48,048 nucleotides of DNA from an uncultured Anaerolineales bacterium. GTDB taxonomy: Bacteria; Chloroflexota; Anaerolineae; Epilineales; JAHCIE01. The notes under the pieces were generated by a model. That model searched no databases and was not told the origin of the DNA. It was given only the letters and a program-made list of their open reading frames with translations. The stretch lies in assembly GCA_964557745.1 (NCBI GenBank), contig CAZLBQ010000002.1, forward strand, positions 1-48,048, read 5' to 3'. Positions within the stretch are counted from its first letter, which is position 1; each line of letters starts with the position of its first letter. Of the stretch, positions 6,301 through 47,073 are shown one piece after another. The translations under genes were made by a program, and so were the position numbers.

Positions 6301-6403
6301 ACAAGTATCAAGTGTCAAGTAACAAGTTTCAAGTATGAAGGAAGCAGTTCCAGCCTCTGGACTTGAAACTTGAGACTTCTCACTTGAGACTTGACACTTG
6401 TAG
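6301..6403. repeat. heptanucleotide-repeat hairpin, CAAGT/ACTTG family (copy A)
   Basis: CAAGT at 6302, 6309, 6316, 6323, 6330. ACTTG at 6361, 6368, 6382, 6389, 6396 (ACTTC at 6375). Perfect 12-bp stem CAAGTTTCAAGT (6323-6334) / ACTTGAAACTTG (6361-6372). Confidence 0.9.
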
Positions 6404-6931: not shown

Positions 6932-7055
6932 ACCAAGTAACAAGTGACAAGTTTCAAGTCGTAAGTGGCAAGTCACAAGTGGCCGATGACAAGTTTCAAG
7001 CCAACGACACCAAGTTCTTACTTGAAACTTGATCCTTGTCACTTGACACTTGTCG
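6932..7055. repeat. heptanucleotide-repeat hairpin, CAAGT/ACTTG family (copy B)
   Basis: Twelve nnCAAGT-type units in unbroken 7-nt phase from 6934 to 7011 (three degenerate). Then ACTTG-type units at 7020, 7027, 7034, 7041, 7048. Confidence 0.9.
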
Positions 7056-17186: not shown

Positions 17187-17369
17187 AGTTGTTGATACGT
17201 GAGGCGTGGTCGGGAATGGGTAACATTGGGCGGGTTGGCAGCGTCCAACGAGCAATATTATAGCCCCAACTGGCCGTTGCTGTCCATTGAACCTGACGCG
17301 CAGGCGCGTCCTTCCGCCATAGGCGTTTTCCCGTCCCGCGTATCACGTTCCACGTATGGAGTACCTGGC

Positions 17370-18068
17370 ATGACCCTCAATCCGGCTCCGACCGTCGTCG
17401 GCACTCTGCCGGCCCAACTGCATCCCCTCCTCGACGAGGTCGAAGGTATCACCGGCCTCCCGGAGACTGTCTTGAACCCGCCGCCCCTGCTCATCGTCAT
17501 ATCCGGTCCGTCCGGAGTCGGCAAGGATACGGTGCTCCAGCGGCTCCAGGAGCGCCAAGTGCCGTTCCACTTCGTCGTCACCGCGACGAGCCGCCCTATG
17601 CGGCCCGGCGAGGTCCACGGCCGCGACTACTTCTTTGTCTCCGAGGACGAATTCCGTCAGATGATCCAGGCCGGCGAGTTGTTGGAGCACGCGCTGGTCT
17701 ACAATCATTACAAAGGCATTCCCAAACAGCAGGTTCGCGACGCCTTCGCCAGCGGCAAGGACGTCATGCTGCGCATTGACGTTCAGGGCGCGGCGACGAT
17801 TCGCCGCCTGGTGCCGGAGGCGGTCCTCATCTTCCTGGCAGCCGGCAGCCTGGCCGAACTCATGGAGCGCCTCATCGCCCGCAAGACCGAGACGGTGGAC
17901 GACCTGGCGAAACGGATGGCGACCGCCCGCGCCGAGATGGACCAGCTCGACCTGTTCGATTATGTCGTCATCAACCGCGACGAAGAGCTAGACGCGACGG
18001 TCGACCAGATCATTGCCATCGTCCACGCCGAGCACGCCCGCGTCCACCCCCGCGAATGCCGCCTCTGA
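17370..18068 (+). CDS. gmk: guanylate kinase
   Basis: ISGPSGVGKDT P-loop, TTR.MRPGEV.G.DY.FV, and Y.G.YGT-like block. ATG at 17370 preceded by GGAG; the track start at 17199 adds 57 unsupported codons. Confidence 0.93.
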   Translation: MTLNPAPTVVGTLPAQLHPLLDEVEGITGLPETVLNPPPLLIVISGPSGVGKDTVLQRLQERQVPFHFVVTATSRPMRPGEVHGRDYFFVSEDEFRQMIQAGELLEHALVYNHYKGIPKQQVRDAFASGKDVMLRIDVQGAATIRRLVPEAVLIFLAAGSLAELMERLIARKTETVDDLAKRMATARAEMDQLDLFDYVVINRDEELDATVDQIIAIVHAEHARVHPRECRL

Positions 18069-18181
18069 GACGTGAGACGTGAAACGTAAAACGCGAAGAC
18101 CAGCCACCGCTATTACGTTTCACGCTTCACTCATCACGCGAGACGTGTCACGCCTCACGGTTCACGCCTCACGTTTGACGC
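18067..18181. repeat. heptanucleotide-repeat hairpin, ACGT-word family
   Basis: Left arm: GAGACGT GAGACGT GAAACGT AAAACGC GAAGACC (18067-18101). Right arm: ten ACGnnnn units in exact phase (18115-18181). The first unit starts inside the gmk TGA (18066-68). Confidence 0.9.
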
Positions 18182-18185
18182 TGCT

Positions 18186-21100
18186 ATGTATGCCGAGATC
18201 GCCGTCAACGTCAGTCTAGGTCCGTGGACCGGCGGCCAGGGCGCGCCGCCCCCGGCCTACCACTACCGCGTCCCGACGGCGCTCGCGGCCGCCATCGCGC
18301 CCGGCCAGCTCGTCCGTGTCCCCTTTGGCGCGCGCCCGGCCCAGGGCATCGTCCTGAGCCTGACCGAGACTGCTCCCATCCTCCCCAACGGCGCGAAGAT
18401 TCGCCCCCTCGACGCCATCGCCGACCCTCGCCCCGTCCTGGCGCCCGCCCACCTCGCCCTGGCGCGCTGGATCGCTGACACGACCCTCAGTCCCCTGGCC
18501 GACGTCGTCTGGGCCATGGTCCCCTCCGGCCTAGAGGAGAAGGCGCACGTGGTGGTGGAGTTGGTGGCAGGGGAGAAGGCGGAAGGCGGAAGGCGAAAGG
18601 CGAAAGGCAGCGCGCCGCTCGCAGCAGGCAGCACGCAGGAGGTGGATGAAGAGGCGACCGAAGGCGAGCGCCGACCCACGACCCACGACCCACGACCGCC
18701 GACCGACGACGAGTTACCTGCCACTGACCACCAACCAGCGACCACTGGCGACACACCAACCACCGACCACCAACGACCGACCACCGACGACCGACCACTG
18801 CGTCTGGGGCCGGTGCAGCAGGCGATTGTCAACGCGCTGACGGAGAGCGGGCCGCTGCGGCTGGACGACCTGACCGCGCGGGTGGGCGGCAAACCGACCA
18901 GCGCCCTGAACAGCCTGGTCGAGCGGGGTCTAGTGCGGCGGACGTGGGCGCTCGACCCGCCGACCGTTCGGCCGCGCACCGTGCGCGTCGTGGTCCTGAC
19001 GGCGACGCCTAGCGAGGTCGAGGCGGCGCGCCCAACCCTGGGCCGCGATACCCCTGAAGCGCGCGCCCTGGCCTGGCTCGCGGCCTGCGGCGACCCCCTG
19101 CCCTCGCTCGCAGCCCTGCAACAAGCCAGCGGCGCGTCGGCGGGCGCGATCCAGCGGCTGGCCGCCGAGGGTGTCATCGGCGTGACGGGCAAGCGGACGC
19201 TTCTGGCCCTGCGCGTGAGCCGCGTCGAGGCCGCGGCATCGCCCCACAAGGAGGGGAAGGTCGGGCCAGCCCTTGGCCTCCTCCTCGCCAGCCCCGTCCC
19301 CCTCGACCTGGCCGACCTCAAGGCGCAGGGGGTGACGGCCCCGCATGTCAAGCGCCTGGTCGAGGCGGGCCTCGTCCAGCGCATCGAGGAGGAGCCGAGC
19401 GTCTACCTGACCATCCCGCTAGACCACATCCCCGACGCCCTGGTCCGGCTGCGTAAGGCGGACGGCCAGGCCCATGCCCTGGCCCACCTGCTGGCCCACG
19501 GACCTGAGATGGATGCCGCGACCCTGGCGCAGGCGAGCCAGGCCAGCCTGGAGGACTTGCGCGCCCTCGAAGCGCGGGGGCTGCTCCGTATCGAGGAGCG
19601 CCCGGCCTGGCGCGACCCGCTGGCCGGCCAGAGCTTCGCCCTCGCCATCCCGCCCCACCTGACCGACGACCAGGCGCGCGCCTGGGCAGCCATCGAGGCG
19701 GCCTTTGACACTCCTGGGGAGAGGCGGGCGTTCCTCCTCCACGGCGTCACCGGCTCCGGCAAGACCGAACTCTACCTGCGCGGCGTCGCGGCGGCCCTGG
19801 CGCGCGGCCAGCAGGCGCTCATCCTCGTGCCCGAGATCGCGCTGACGCCACAGACCGTCCGCCGCTTCGCCGCTCGCTTCCCCGGCCGCGTCACCGTCTG
19901 GCACTCGAAGCTGACGCCCGGCCAGCGCTATGACACCTGGCAGCGCGTCCGCGCCGGCGAGATTGACGTCGTCATCGGCTCGCGCTCGGCCCTCTTCGCG
20001 CCCCTGTCCCGCCTGGGGCTGATTGTCGTGGACGAGGAGCATGAGCCGTCGTACAAGCAGGATGCCACGCCACGCTACCACGCCCGCGAGGGCGCGCTGC
20101 GCCTGGGCCGCGAGACAGGGGCGGTTGTCCTGCTGGGTAGCGCCACGCCCGACGTCGAGACCTATGCCCGCGCCGAGCAGGGCGAGTTGACCCTGCTGAC
20201 CCTACCGCGCCGCGTGGTCGGGCATCGGGCGATGGCTGACCGCCAGGCGACGATGGATCACGGACGATGGACGGTGGGGGAGGGCGTGGAAAAGGCGGGC
20301 GTCATGCATGCTGGCCCCACCTACGGTGACCTGCCGCCGGTGCAGGTGGTCGACTTGCGGGCCGAGCTGCGGGCGGGCAACACGAGTGTTTTCAGCCGCG
20401 CCCTGCAGGCGGCGCTGGCCGAGACACTGGCGCGGCGCGAGCAGGCCATCCTGTTCCTCAACCGGCGGGGGGCGGCGACATTTGTCATGTGCCGCGACTG
20501 CGGCCACGTCCTGGCCTGCCCCCGCTGCTCGACGCCGCTGACCTACCACACGGCGACGGGCGCGCTGGTCTGCCACCACTGCGGCCAGCGCCAGACTCAG
20601 CCGCGCGCCTGCCCAAAGTGCGGGAGCGAGCGGGTCAAGCACTTTGGCGCGGGGACGCAGCGCGTCGAGGAGGCCCTGCTGGCCCTGTTCCCCCAGGCGC
20701 GCGTCCTGCGCTGGGATAGCGATACCACCGGCGGCCGCACCGCCCACGCCGAGTTCCTGGACGCCTTTCTGCAGGGCGACGCCGACGTGTTGGTCGGGAC
20801 GCAGATGATCGCCAAGGGCCTGGACTTGCCGTTGGTGACGCTGGTCGGCGTGGTCAGCGCTGACACCGGGCTGCACCTGCCCGACTTCCGGGCCGCCGAG
20901 CGCACCTTCCAGCTGCTGACCCAGGTGGCGGGGCGGGCGGCGCGCGGTCCCCTCGGCGGGCGCGTCATCTTCCAGACCTACACGCCCGAGCATTATGCCA
21001 TTCAGGCAGCGGCCCGTCACGACTACCTGTCATTCTACGCGACCGAGATGGAGTTTCGCCGCGCGGCGGCCTACCCGCCCTACACGCGGCTGGCGCGCCT

Positions 21101-21368
21101 GCTGTATCTCGACCCCACGTGGGAGCGGGCGCGCGCCGAGAGCGAGACCCTCGCGCGGCGGCTGACCGACTACATCCGCCGCCAGGGTCTCACCAACACC
21201 AGCCTCATTGGCCCGGCCCCGGCCTACTTTAGCCGCGAGCGCGGTGAGTACCGCTGGCATATCGTGGTGCGCAGCCCCGACCCGGCCGCGCTGCTGCGCG
21301 CCTTCTTCCAGACGGCCCGCCCGCCCTATGGCTGGCGCATCGACATGGACCCGGTGAGCCTGCTATGA
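18186..21368 (+). CDS. priA: primosomal protein N' (replication restart helicase PriA), unusually long
   Basis: Walker A LLHGVTGSGKTE, DEEHE box, Cys-rich zinc region (CRDCG...CPRCS...CHHCG...CPKCGS), C-terminal domain. About 290 extra residues lie between the N-terminal DNA-binding domain and the helicase core. Confidence 0.93.
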   Translation: MYAEIAVNVSLGPWTGGQGAPPPAYHYRVPTALAAAIAPGQLVRVPFGARPAQGIVLSLTETAPILPNGAKIRPLDAIADPRPVLAPAHLALARWIADTTLSPLADVVWAMVPSGLEEKAHVVVELVAGEKAEGGRRKAKGSAPLAAGSTQEVDEEATEGERRPTTHDPRPPTDDELPATDHQPATTGDTPTTDHQRPTTDDRPLRLGPVQQAIVNALTESGPLRLDDLTARVGGKPTSALNSLVERGLVRRTWALDPPTVRPRTVRVVVLTATPSEVEAARPTLGRDTPEARALAWLAACGDPLPSLAALQQASGASAGAIQRLAAEGVIGVTGKRTLLALRVSRVEAAASPHKEGKVGPALGLLLASPVPLDLADLKAQGVTAPHVKRLVEAGLVQRIEEEPSVYLTIPLDHIPDALVRLRKADGQAHALAHLLAHGPEMDAATLAQASQASLEDLRALEARGLLRIEERPAWRDPLAGQSFALAIPPHLTDDQARAWAAIEAAFDTPGERRAFLLHGVTGSGKTELYLRGVAAALARGQQALILVPEIALTPQTVRRFAARFPGRVTVWHSKLTPGQRYDTWQRVRAGEIDVVIGSRSALFAPLSRLGLIVVDEEHEPSYKQDATPRYHAREGALRLGRETGAVVLLGSATPDVETYARAEQGELTLLTLPRRVVGHRAMADRQATMDHGRWTVGEGVEKAGVMHAGPTYGDLPPVQVVDLRAELRAGNTSVFSRALQAALAETLARREQAILFLNRRGAATFVMCRDCGHVLACPRCSTPLTYHTATGALVCHHCGQRQTQPRACPKCGSERVKHFGAGTQRVEEALLALFPQARVLRWDSDTTGGRTAHAEFLDAFLQGDADVLVGTQMIAKGLDLPLVTLVGVVSADTGLHLPDFRAAERTFQLLTQVAGRAARGPLGGRVIFQTYTPEHYAIQAAARHDYLSFYATEMEFRRAAAYPPYTRLARLLYLDPTWERARAESETLARRLTDYIRRQGLTNTSLIGPAPAYFSRERGEYRWHIVVRSPDPAALLRAFFQTARPPYGWRIDMDPVSLL
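18672..18797 (+). repeat. 18 tandem heptanucleotide units translated in frame within priA
   Basis: CGACCCA x3, CGACCGC, CGACCGA, CGACGAG, TTACCTG, CCACTGA, CCACCAA ... CCGACCA, in unbroken 7-nt phase. A second tract of 5 units (GGAGAAG GCGGAAG x2 GCGAAAG x2) lies at 18572-18606. Confidence 0.9.
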
Positions 21369-36329: not shown

Positions 36330-37532
<1,203 letters not shown>

Positions 37533-37612
37533 CGATTGACGATGGACGACGGACGATGGACGATAGGGGAGGCTCTCATGCTCCGTCTATTGTCCCTCGT
37601 CCCTCGTCCCCG
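37533..37612. repeat. heptanucleotide-repeat hairpin, GACGA/TCGTC word
   Basis: CGATTGA CGATGGA CGACGGA CGATGGA CGATAGG, loop, TCCGTCT ATTGTCC CTCGTCC CTCGTCC. Starts on the nucleotide after the tuf TAA. Confidence 0.9.
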
Positions 37613-41245: not shown

Positions 41246-41899
41246 TTGGGCCGCAAAGTTCATCCCTATGGGTTCCGTCTCGGCGTCATCAACGACTGGC
41301 GCGCGCGCTGGTACGCCGATGGCCAAGAGTATGGCGACCAACTGATTGAAGACATCAACATCCGCAAGATCATCCGCCAGGACCTGGGGCGCTCCGGCGT
41401 CGCCGACCTGGAGATCGAGCGCTATCCCAAGCAGGTGTCCATTACGATCCACACGGCTAAGCCGGGTATCATCATCGGACGTAAGGGCGCTAAGGTGAAT
41501 GACCTCAAAAAGAAGTTGGAAGCGTTGACCAACAAGAAGGTCCGCATTGAGGTCGAAGAGATCAGCCGCCCCGAACTAGTGGCGGCGCTGGTCGCCGAGA
41601 GCATCGTGCAGCAGGTCGAGAAGCGCGTCTCGCACAAGCGCGCCATGAAGCAGGCGGTACAACGCGCCATGCGCCTCGGCGCCAAGGGCGTCCGCATCGC
41701 TATGTCGGGCCGCCTGGCCGGGTCGGAAATGGCCCGCCACGAGAGCGCCCAGGAAGGTCGCATCCCGCGCCACACCCTGCGCTCCGAGATTGACTACGCC
41801 ACCGACGAGGCGCTCACGACGTACGGGCGCATCGGCGTCAAGGTGTGGATCTACAAGGGCGACAAGCTGCCCACGCTGCGCGAGACGGCCCAGGCCTAG
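41246..41899 (+). CDS. rpsC: 30S ribosomal protein S3
   Basis: TTG start with [24 protein letters not shown]+..DW.++WYA....Y; KH domain; 217 aa. Confidence 0.97.
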
Positions 41900-41900
41900 A

Positions 41901-41974
41901 CTTGGAATTAGGAAGGAAGAATTAGGAAGTAAGAAGCCATTCATCATTCCTAATTCATCATTCTTAATTCGAAA
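41901..41974. repeat. heptanucleotide-repeat hairpin, AGGAA/TTCCT word (AT-rich)
   Basis: CTTGGAA TTAGGAA GGAAGAA TTAGGAA GTAAGAA, loop, TTCATCA TTCCTAA TTCATCA TTCTTAA TTCGAAA. Starts 2 nt after the rpsC TAG. Confidence 0.9.
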
Positions 41975-43524: not shown

Positions 43525-43612
43525 GGCAAGTGTCAAGTGTCAAGTAGCAAGTTTCAAGTAGGAAATCCGAGAGGCCGAACTTGAAACTTGAGACTTGAAA
43601 CTTGTCAGTTGG
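43525..43612. repeat. heptanucleotide-repeat hairpin, CAAGT/ACTTG family (copy C)
   Basis: CAAGT at 43527, 43534, 43541, 43548, 43555. ACTTG at 43579, 43586, 43593, 43600 (AGTTG at 43607). Same 12-bp stem CAAGTTTCAAGT/ACTTGAAACTTG as copies A and B. Confidence 0.9.
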
Positions 43613-45718: not shown

Positions 45719-45782
45719 ATTGACGACCGACGACCGACGACCGCCCAATGGTTCGGTGGTCAGCGGTCGGTCGTCGGCGGTC
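45718..45782. repeat. heptanucleotide-repeat hairpin, GACCGAC/GGTCGTC word
   Basis: GATTGAC GACCGAC GACCGAC GACCGCC, loop, GGTGGTC AGCGGTC GGTCGTC GGCGGTC. The first unit starts on the G of the rplF TAG. Confidence 0.9.
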
Positions 45783-45842: not shown

Positions 45843-46211
45843 ATGGCTAAGACATCCGAGCGCCGGCTCTCGCGCCAGCGCCGTCACGAGCGCGTGCGCC
45901 GCAAGGTACAAGGCACCCCGGAGCGCCCGCGCCTGAATGTATATCGCAGCTTGACCCACATCTACGCCCAGGTGATCGACGACACGCGCGGCCACACCCT
46001 GGCCGCCGCCTCGACCCTCGACGGGTCGTTGAAGGCGCAGTTGGGTGAGATGAACAAGACCGAGGAAGCGAAGGCCGTCGGGCGGCTGGTTGCCGAGCGC
46101 GCCAAGGCGGCGGGGATTGATAAGGTGGTCTTTGACCGCGGTGGGTATGTGTATCACGGTCGCGTCAAGGCGCTGGCCGATGCCGCCCGCGAGGCCGGTC
46201 TGGACTTCTAA
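45843..46211 (+). CDS. rplR: 50S ribosomal protein L18
   Basis: RR..R+R.K+.GT.ERPRL.V+[18 protein letters not shown]+L ... [25 protein letters not shown]. Confidence 0.98.
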
Positions 46212-46296
46212 CGCAATCCGTGACATAAGCGAGTCGGGCGGGGCGACGCGAGTCGCACGGCCGCCCGGCGTGAGCACACAGAAGGGTAACTCAGCT

Positions 46297-47073
46297 ATGG
46301 ATGAGATGACACGTAGACCGGCTGGCGGTTCCGGCGGTGGTCCGGCCGGCGGTGGCCGCGGTCGGAGCGGCGGTGGTGGCGGCGGCCAGGGTGGTCGTGG
46401 TCGCGGTCCAGGTGGCCCGGGCGGCGGTGGCCGTGGTCCGGGCGGGCCGGGCGGTGGTCGTGGCCCTGGTGGTCAGGGCGGTCCTGGCGGCCAGGGGGGC
46501 CGTGGTCCGCGCGGCCAGGGCGGCGATCGCGGGGATCGGCCGCGTGGCGACCGCCGCGAGCCGCAAGAGGAGCGCGAGCAGCTCGATGAGCGCGTGATCG
46601 ACATCGCCCGCACGGCGAAGGTCATCAAGGGCGGTCGGCGCTTCGCCTTCCGCGTGGTCGTGGTCGTCGGCGACAACCAGGGCCGCGTTGGCCTGGGCAT
46701 CGGCAAGGCGCGTGAAGTTCCCGAGGCGATCCGCAAGGGCATCGAGCGCGCCAAGAAGAACATGATCACCGTGCCGATGATGGGGACGACCATCCCCCAC
46801 GAGGTCACGACGCGCTACAGCGCCGCCAAGGTCATGCTCAAGCCCGCTACGCCGGGCACGGGCGTCATCGCGGGCGGCAGCGTCCGCGCCGTCGTCGAGG
46901 CCGTGGGCATCAAGGACATTCTGACCAAGTCCATGGGCAGCAGCAACGTGCTCAACGTCGTGCGCGCCACGATGCAGGGCCTGAGCGAGCTAAAGGACTA
47001 CAACGAAGAGGCGCGCCGGCGCGGTAAGACGCCGGCCCAGGTGCAGCCAGTGTGGAGCAAGACCAATGGCTAA
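46297..47073 (+). CDS. rpsE: 30S ribosomal protein S5 with long RGG-rich N-terminal extension
   Basis: Core [42 protein letters not shown]+KG... preceded in frame by about 90 residues of G/R/P repeats. I chose the ATG at 46297; the track ORF start at 46090 overlaps rplR. Confidence 0.9.

Follow-up and report, generated by a model that had tools for sequence, protein, structure and literature searches.

A heptanucleotide repeat array read in frame in the priA gene of an Anaerolineales bacterium: probably a tolerated repeat expansion in an inter-domain linker

How can a tandem repeat whose unit is not a multiple of three nucleotides persist within the reading frame of a conserved replication helicase? 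Non-triplet tandem repeats in open reading frames (ORFs) are normally purged or are used as phase-variation switches in surface genes. The question is raised by a 48,048-nucleotide (nt) stretch of DNA from an uncultured Anaerolineales bacterium of the phylum Chloroflexota (GenBank assembly GCA_964557745.1, contig CAZLBQ010000002.1), which we call the window. In it priA, the gene for the replication-restart helicase PriA, contains an array of 18 heptamers. In our view the tract probably arose by local expansion of a heptanucleotide repeat and is tolerated as a disordered linker between domains; its frame would be kept by purifying selection against length changes other than multiples of three. 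The tract adds to the known heptanucleotide repeat class as a variant.

A heptamer array in the priA reading frame

The host gene is the ORF at 18186-21368 on the forward strand, which encodes 1060 amino acids (aa) and has matches in Pfam, NCBIfam and the Protein Data Bank. Its product is PriA: the 3' DNA-binding domain (3'BD, aa 24-113), the SF2 helicase core with its Walker A motif (Pfam DEAD, 494-659), the Cys-rich zinc ribbon (CRR, 778-803) and the C-terminal domain (PriA_C, 965-1056) follow one another in order. The protein scores 600 bits against TIGR00595 and matches the solved PriA structures 4NL4 and 6DGD at E = 2e-110, and the invariant GSGKT, DEEH and four-Cys motifs are present in a 20-sequence alignment. 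The closest PriA sequences on record are 63-68% identical to it. No identical copy was found in the public protein collection, and a scan of Joint Genome Institute metagenomes returned only relatives at 45% identity or less.

Read directly, positions 18672-18797 of the forward strand grade from CGACCCA to CCGACCA in 18 heptamers. Units 1 to 9 are CGACCCA (three times), CGACCGC, CGACCGA, CGACGAG, TTACCTG, CCACTGA and CCACCAA; units 10 to 18 are CCAGCGA, CCACTGG, CGACACA, CCAACCA, CCGACCA, CCAACGA, CCGACCA, CCGACGA and CCGACCA. They keep a single phase throughout, for a total of 126 nt or 42 codons. Since position 18672 lies 486 nt into the priA ORF, the array begins at a codon boundary, and in frame it encodes a six-fold 7-residue repeat rich in Pro, Thr and Asp (RPTTHDP RPPTDDE LPATDHQ PATTGDT PTTDHQR PTTDDRP). 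Only the first three units are identical to one another. Tandem Repeats Finder (TRF) reported 90% matches for 18672-18710 and 72% for 18721-18798. The lag-7 identity of the array, 0.70, is the highest of any 126-nt segment in the 48-kb window, against a background of 0.27 ± 0.06; 20,000 mononucleotide and as many codon shuffles all stayed below it, with a maximum of 0.52. Direct reading and the shuffles thus confirm what a first-pass annotation of this sequence had proposed, namely 18 units in one phase, in frame in priA, with a 7-residue period in the protein; the peptide it gave is the same one, offset by one residue.

A second periodic tract lies just upstream. At 18572-18606 (forward strand) there are five purine-rich heptamers, GGAGAAG, GCGGAAG twice and GCGAAAG twice, which encode EKAEGGRRKAKG and which TRF scores at period 7 with 4.9 copies and 96% matches; this tract had been noted before and is as described. 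In phase with it, five GCAGCNN-type heptamers that had gone unremarked follow on the same strand at 18607-18641 (GCAGCGC GCCGCTC GCAGCAG GCAGCAC GCAGGAG; TRF 18621-18642, period 7). Since these are also 7-periodic, the upstream tract spans 18572-18641. By unit parsing, a degenerate 30-nt junction with a 2-nt phase slip (18642-18671, forward strand) separates the two periodic tracts. The segment 18572-18797 thus consists of heptamer arrays pieced together, with a single 2-nt phase slip; with 18 + 10 head-to-tail units it is a tandem array of the kind that defines heptanucleotide long simple sequence repeats (LSSRs) and arrays like the short tandemly repeated repetitive (STRR) sequences.

A lineage-specific insertion between two PriA domains

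Both tracts lie in a lineage-specific insertion at aa ~126-205 (18561-18800, forward strand), between the 3'BD and the first winged-helix (WH) domain, as delimited by orthologue alignment, DNA comparison and AlphaFold2. In the 20-sequence alignment, the spacing from AHxxVE at the end of the 3'BD to RLGPVQ in the first WH domain is ~80 residues in the window PriA vs ~7 in most orthologues, which bears out the earlier supposition that the segment is an insertion. At the DNA level the corresponding segment measures 285 nt here and 69 nt in four loci from relatives (L001-L004), a difference of +216 nt or 72 codons. The insertion site is the 3'BD-WH junction of the Klebsiella PriA structure. AlphaFold2 modelled both flanking domains confidently and gave aa 130-204 a predicted local distance difference test (pLDDT) score of ~30, without secondary structure. 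This prediction agrees with the low-complexity linker that the first-pass annotation had envisaged, and it is supportive rather than decisive evidence that the insertion forms a disordered inter-domain linker.

Downstream of the insertion, four winged-helix-like domains in tandem separate the 3'BD from the helicase core in the window PriA and its close relatives (window 18810-19610, aa ~209-474), modelled by AlphaFold2 at aa 209-271, 275-342, 346-408 and 412-474. E. coli and Klebsiella PriA have one, and two of the four are absent from shorter (~830 aa) Chloroflexota orthologues.

In relatives the same site holds other heptamer arrays, mostly as inverted pairs that can form hairpins, a point that the first-pass annotation had not made. 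In L081, whose PriA is 65% identical to that of the window, (GGACGAT)n, a loop and (ATCGTCC)n make up an RNA hairpin of -91 kcal/mol (z = -6.6), and in L082 (GAGGACG)n is paired with (CCTCCGT)n (z = -2.45). L082 also has GAAGGCGGAATGCAGCAGGCGGAG at the site of the window's 18607-18641 tract, and the string GAAGGCGGAA...GCAGCAGGC is common to its insert and the window. These shared strings suggest that the two inserts have some ancestry in common and turned over later. In L001, closely related to L082, the site holds no more than a short palindrome, GACGGAGGA-ta-(c)TCCTCCGTC, possibly the sort of seed from which such arrays grow. There is nothing at the insertion site in L002-L004, and the PriA homologue P0052, from a distant clade, has a segment with a 7-aa period at aa 111-156.

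The array in the window shows no folding beyond that of shuffles, with z = -0.40 as RNA and z = +0.33 as DNA. An inverted-repeat search of the insert returned three short ones only, and the sole complementarity, between 18556-18569 and 18717-18736, is vestigial. No Rfam family matches the arrays; across the window only two tRNAs reach the gathering score. A G-quadruplex or i-motif was also considered and rejected by inspection, as GGG runs are absent and there are only three CCC runs.

The nucleotide composition of the insert bears on whether its peptide is under selection. GC content at third codon positions (GC3) is 0.64-0.69 in the insert vs 0.90 in the remainder of priA, and composition is flattened across the codon positions, as would be expected since each unit column gets read in all three of them. 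Deviations from the unit consensus number 17, 10 and 11 at codon positions 1, 2 and 3. An excess at the third position is absent, and this is not the pattern that purifying selection on the peptide would produce. The flattened GC3 and the substitution pattern point to a peptide that is tolerated, not selected, and leave unproven the claim that the repeat had been exapted as a linker.

We propose the following origin for the tract. Units of 7 nt would have expanded and turned over locally at the DNA level, most plausibly by replication slippage or template switching, and the same process would be the source of the intergenic heptamer arrays of this Anaerolineae lineage, which are usually hairpin-forming inverted pairs. 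Within a gene, an array would survive only if its net length change is a multiple of 3, if it brings no stop into the frame and if the surface loop or linker in which it falls is permissive; all three are true of the window priA. The outcome would be a translated and probably near-neutral low-complexity insertion of ~80 residues between the PriA 3'BD and the first WH domain.

priA as a recurrent host of heptamer arrays

The loci in which we counted arrays were all picked for containing priA and cover its neighbourhood of ±10 kb, and some of the array-bearing priA cases have common ancestry. Among the arrays with periods of 7 or its multiples in 98 priA loci, 28 of 84 lie within priA, and every one of the 28 sits whole in an ORF of 854-1299 codons. 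For nine gene-annotated genomes (200 kb, 191 genes) we applied uniform criteria. Here arrays occur within six of nine priA genes vs none of 182 other genes (Fisher p = 1.3e-9), and 30 further arrays are intergenic or at gene edges. Candidate arrays in long ORFs outside priA were rejected: nearly all lay upstream of the true start, within 50 codons of the beginning of a stop-to-stop ORF, or were GC-rich two-copy 13-14-mers. We regard the enrichment in priA as real in this sample, and unexplained. priA is the preferred coding host of heptamer arrays across Anaerolineae, which the first-pass annotation had missed, and the element of real interest is this recurrence in priA of fast-turnover, often hairpin-forming heptamer arrays.

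In the numbering of the window protein, arrays are found at ~127-163 (the 3'BD-WH linker), ~299-326, ~505-526, ~704-707 and ~808 (in the Cys-rich region), the commonest being ~505-526, a loop just ahead of Walker A. At these five loop or linker sites they recur in at least eight clade/site combinations. The unit varies by species at the same site and each array is internally homogeneous, as with AATCCGA in L020 (six copies), CAATTGT in L022 (5.6 copies, perfect) and CAATTCA in L034 (3.7 copies). An inverted partner lies in the coding sequence for the arrays of L007, L009, L010, L012, L015, L037, L099, L102 and L104. Among these, L007, L009, L012 and L037 form strong hairpins, that of L037 at -92 kcal/mol; the arrays of L020 and L034 form none. 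Detection of 7-aa periodicity at the protein level was too insensitive for a comparison with a control gene: out of 116 PriA homologues it picked up five, and the window protein was not among them.

The loop ahead of Walker A also holds a repeat of another kind in the PriA homologues P0037, P0124 and P0130, namely six copies of EEQWSKGA (8 residues, 24 nt). Since a 24-nt repeat is present there six times, this loop appears to be generally repeat-tolerant.

Several of these observations weigh against a simple tolerated expansion in a disordered linker. Low pLDDT is partly expected for any segment without aligned homologues. The relatives have a hairpin architecture that is missing from the window copy, whose history would therefore be more complex than one simple expansion. 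The case for a near-neutral peptide is drawn from the substitution pattern and composition. Finally, pure tolerance does not explain why the arrays concentrate in priA, and this hints at targeting or selection.

Selection could act on the arrays as cis-acting elements. Hairpins, or the Shine-Dalgarno-like purine tract GGAGAAGGCGGAAGG, would limit PriA copy number through translation throttling, ribosome pausing at domain boundaries or mRNA stability, and coding capacity would be a side effect. The priA-specific enrichment speaks for this, both in the nine genomes and in the wider set, as do the recurrence at five loop or linker sites and the many copies in coding sequence that form strong hairpins, L081 among them. 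However, the window copy folds no better than shuffles, the unit sequence is different in each species, and some arrays in coding sequence are not hairpins. The commonest site also accepts the 24-nt repeat, and the sample consists of priA neighbourhoods only. We regard such cis-acting selection as unlikely. A broader version holds that structure-forming heptamer arrays are preferentially gained or retained in priA at the five sites across Anaerolineae and read through by the ribosome, with a functional coupling between repeat and gene; this coupling we hold to be rather improbable. If it were true, it might take the form of hairpin-based throttling or autoregulation of PriA expression, or of a mutational process tied to the PriA locus, and the arrays would be the first non-triplet repeat class systematically housed in one housekeeping ORF.

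Alternatively, the tract could be a decayed mobile palindromic element that had transposed into priA in frame. Rickettsia palindromic elements (RPEs) are the model for this; Ogata and colleagues reportedly described them in 2000 as selfish DNA, palindromic in sequence, that sits in frame within genes for proteins. In RPEs a single sequence of 100-150 bp recurs in dispersed copies, and they are accordingly mobile. In-frame palindromic inserts at loop sites in relatives are in keeping with such an origin, as are the identity of the L081 priA unit, GGACGAT, with the unit of a hairpin downstream of tuf in the window (37532-37564), and a 12-nt word common to the priA array and the hairpin between rplF and rplR. 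Yet no dispersed element of shared sequence emerged, and full-length dispersed copies like those of RPEs or miniature inverted-repeat transposable elements were not found. Each locus has its own unit, and the sharing amounts to words of 12-14 nt that are themselves repeat units. As to the palindromic character of such inserts, L081 and L082 have it, but the window copy does not fold beyond shuffles. Sister-species units differ by 2-3 nt at the same site in homogeneous arrays (L020, L022, L034), which is the signature of turnover in situ; in L001 the site is occupied by a short palindrome, a possible seed, and no target-site duplications were noted. A transposed element is, on this evidence, very unlikely. 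RPEs would nonetheless be the nearest functional analogue, since there too conserved proteins accept in-frame palindromic DNA at their surface loops and gain extra peptide from its translation. Membership of the RPE class fails because there is no dispersed shared sequence; the arrays here have no sequence in common from locus to locus and seem to grow in place.

The first-pass annotation had offered a choice between a length constraint and a slippage switch. The former holds in a trivial sense: gain or loss of one or two units leads to a stop, and all 28 priA arrays are in open frames. In a switch, slippage by a number of units that is not a multiple of 3 would reversibly toggle PriA off and on, as in a phase-variable contingency locus. 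The 7-nt unit is coprime with 3, a change of one or two CGACCCA units would truncate PriA at aa 175-222 and a change of three would restore the frame, and three perfect CGACCCA and three GAAGGCG units are present. However, contingency loci have a long perfect simple sequence repeat, and here the perfect tract ends after three units and the remainder of the array is 72-90% matched. Degeneracy of the 15 further units suppresses slippage, and a switch by phase variation is therefore unlikely here. PriA is a housekeeping replication-restart helicase, neither a surface protein nor part of a restriction-modification system, and we saw no frameshifted heptamer variant among the relatives. Among the cluster members of array-bearing PriAs we found no variants in 7-aa steps; where members are shorter, the reason is fragmentation, an alternative start or a frameshift in a homopolymer. 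A single split priA came to light, in L106, from the metagenome-assembled genome GCA_037045275.1 (L106:2526-5547), where a 153-aa 3'BD and an 848-aa remainder are annotated as two ORFs. It stems from a +1 G within a G-run where the 3'BD-WH linker insert begins, not from a 7-nt step, and the otherwise near-identical L104, of the same 90% cluster, has an intact priA (L104:10001-13021); the L106 split may be a sequencing error or real. Taken together, these findings make a phase-variable priA highly improbable.

Least probable of all is an assembly or sequencing artefact: the source is a metagenome-assembled genome of an uncultured organism, repeats are error-prone in assembly and the public collection holds no identical protein, but the units are degenerate enough for k-mers to be unique outside the perfect tract of 21 nt, both flanks align in frame with orthologues within an intact ORF, and analogous arrays occur at the same site in independent assemblies of relatives.

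A tolerated local expansion remains the explanation that we favor, and its meaning goes beyond the window. Besides being purged or used as switches, non-triplet repeats in ORFs would have a third outcome, apparently common in one phylum: heptamer arrays, often whole hairpins, persist in frame in a conserved replication helicase, where their turnover between species is rapid and they lengthen loops and linkers with disordered peptide. If the apparent confinement to priA extends to whole genomes, there would be either an unrecognised selective or mutational link of structure-forming repeats to the replication-restart machinery, or PriA would be an unusually permissive scaffold, which would help us understand de novo gain of linkers from non-coding repeat processes. 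The tracts also carry a warning for annotation: they create low-complexity segments with a 7-residue period, and single-base assembly errors there can split the gene, as may have happened in L106.

Heptamer arrays between genes and known repeat classes

The window contains ~10 intergenic heptamer loci, mostly hairpin-forming inverted pairs with units of five fixed and two variable positions. One of them adjoins priA: between gmk and the priA start codon (18066-18181, forward strand), TGAGACG is paired with TCACGNN in a hairpin (RNA -41.7 kcal/mol, z = -3.1). This intergenic spot is a hot spot, with different heptamer units in the window, L082 and L001. Between rplF and rplR (45722-45782, forward strand), a hairpin of GACGACC paired with GGTCGTC has CCGACGACCGAC in common with the priA array. 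Allowing at most one mismatch, CCGACGACCGAC occurs 8 times vs 0.76 expected, and seven of the eight occurrences are in these two places. The resemblance to the rplF-rplR hairpin, pointed out in the first-pass annotation, is therefore real but narrow. TRF and the shared word do put the priA array in one repeat class with the heptamer hairpins that lie between genes in this genome, as had been thought. More widely, TRF arrays in 791 kb of Chloroflexota loci have period 7 in 44 cases and period 14 in 31, and each of periods 8, 10, 11 and 13 in only 7-14, an excess of period 7 over its neighbouring non-triplet periods.

Heptanucleotide repeats are the most abundant class of LSSR in many bacterial genomes, and polymerase-footprint slippage has been proposed for them (Mrazek 2007, as cited in PMC4679880 and PMC4692102). 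Our arrays resemble LSSRs (Mrazek et al. 2007) in that tandem units of 7 nt exceed those of other non-triplet periods, presumably arise by slippage and are mostly intergenic. They differ in two ways: an array of at least 18 heptamers is read through in frame in a conserved helicase, and arrays are commonly inverted pairs that form hairpins. Within coding sequences, the literature reports a preference for unit lengths divisible by 3 and a deficit of heptamers in ORFs (PMC4692102, PMC4679880); MacGregor (2015) pointed out that a translated heptamer repeat would give a 7-residue peptide repeat.

Heptamer families with a fixed unit are known, including the cyanobacterial STRR of Calothrix and Anabaena, TAACTGA of Beggiatoaceae (PMC4679880) and GGGNATC of Xanthomonas and Nostoc (PMC4692102). 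Like the arrays here, they are genome-wide tandem heptamer families near gene ends, in their case in filamentous or large-genome bacteria. Those genomes, however, have one or a few fixed units each, whereas nearly every locus here has its own; the phylum here is Chloroflexota, and none of those families is reported systematically in frame in one housekeeping gene. The array is accordingly no STRR proper, which has an STRR1-3 consensus, heterocystous hosts and an intergenic location; the host here belongs to the Anaerolineae, units are locus-specific and the array is coding. Phase-variable contingency loci are non-triplet simple sequence repeats in ORFs, such as the tetranucleotide repeats of Haemophilus influenzae (PMC2651432). 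The priA array is like them in having a unit not divisible by 3 within an ORF, so that a change in unit number shifts the frame. It is unlike them in having a perfect tract of 3 units in a housekeeping gene instead of long perfect tracts in surface or restriction-modification genes. Contingency loci also vary between strains in their ON/OFF state, and no variation of this kind was seen among the relatives compared here. In the literature we found no paper on heptamer arrays in Chloroflexota, nor on in-frame heptamer arrays in PriA.

Other arrays and genes of these loci deserve mention. The family CAAGTNN paired with ACTTGNN accounts for three intergenic hairpins of the window (6301-6400, 6934-7052 and 43527-43604), one of them within a ribosomal-protein gene cluster; its five invariant and two variable positions put a stem mismatch every 7 nt. 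The hairpin downstream of tuf (37532-37610) has the unit GGACGAT/ACGATGG, and the hairpin in the priA coding sequence of L081 (L081:1827-1953) uses the same GGACGAT, so that one unit occurs at non-homologous loci of different genomes. At 41905-41970, after a gene ending at 41899, an AT-rich intergenic hairpin pairs 14-nt units, GAATTAGGAAGGAA with ATTCATCATTCCTA, in a genome of 66% GC.

Upstream of priA, the guanylate kinase gene gmk lies in an ORF of 289 aa at 17199-18068. Its Pfam match begins only at residue 98, so its true start is probably well downstream of 17199. Near priA in L081, a RadA/Sms-like gene (Zn-ribbon, AAA_25, ChlI/Lon_C; L081:11225-14119, 964 aa) contains an intein (Intein_splicing and LAGLIDADG), and its counterpart in L082 (L082:9352-10773, 473 aa) is without one. 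Downstream of rplR, the ORF at 46090-47073 presumably encodes ribosomal protein S5, judging by position only. It has an N-terminal low-complexity extension of ~100 residues rich in Gly, Arg and Pro (46294-46600, forward strand), in which the repeat period is 21-75 nt and there are no heptamers.

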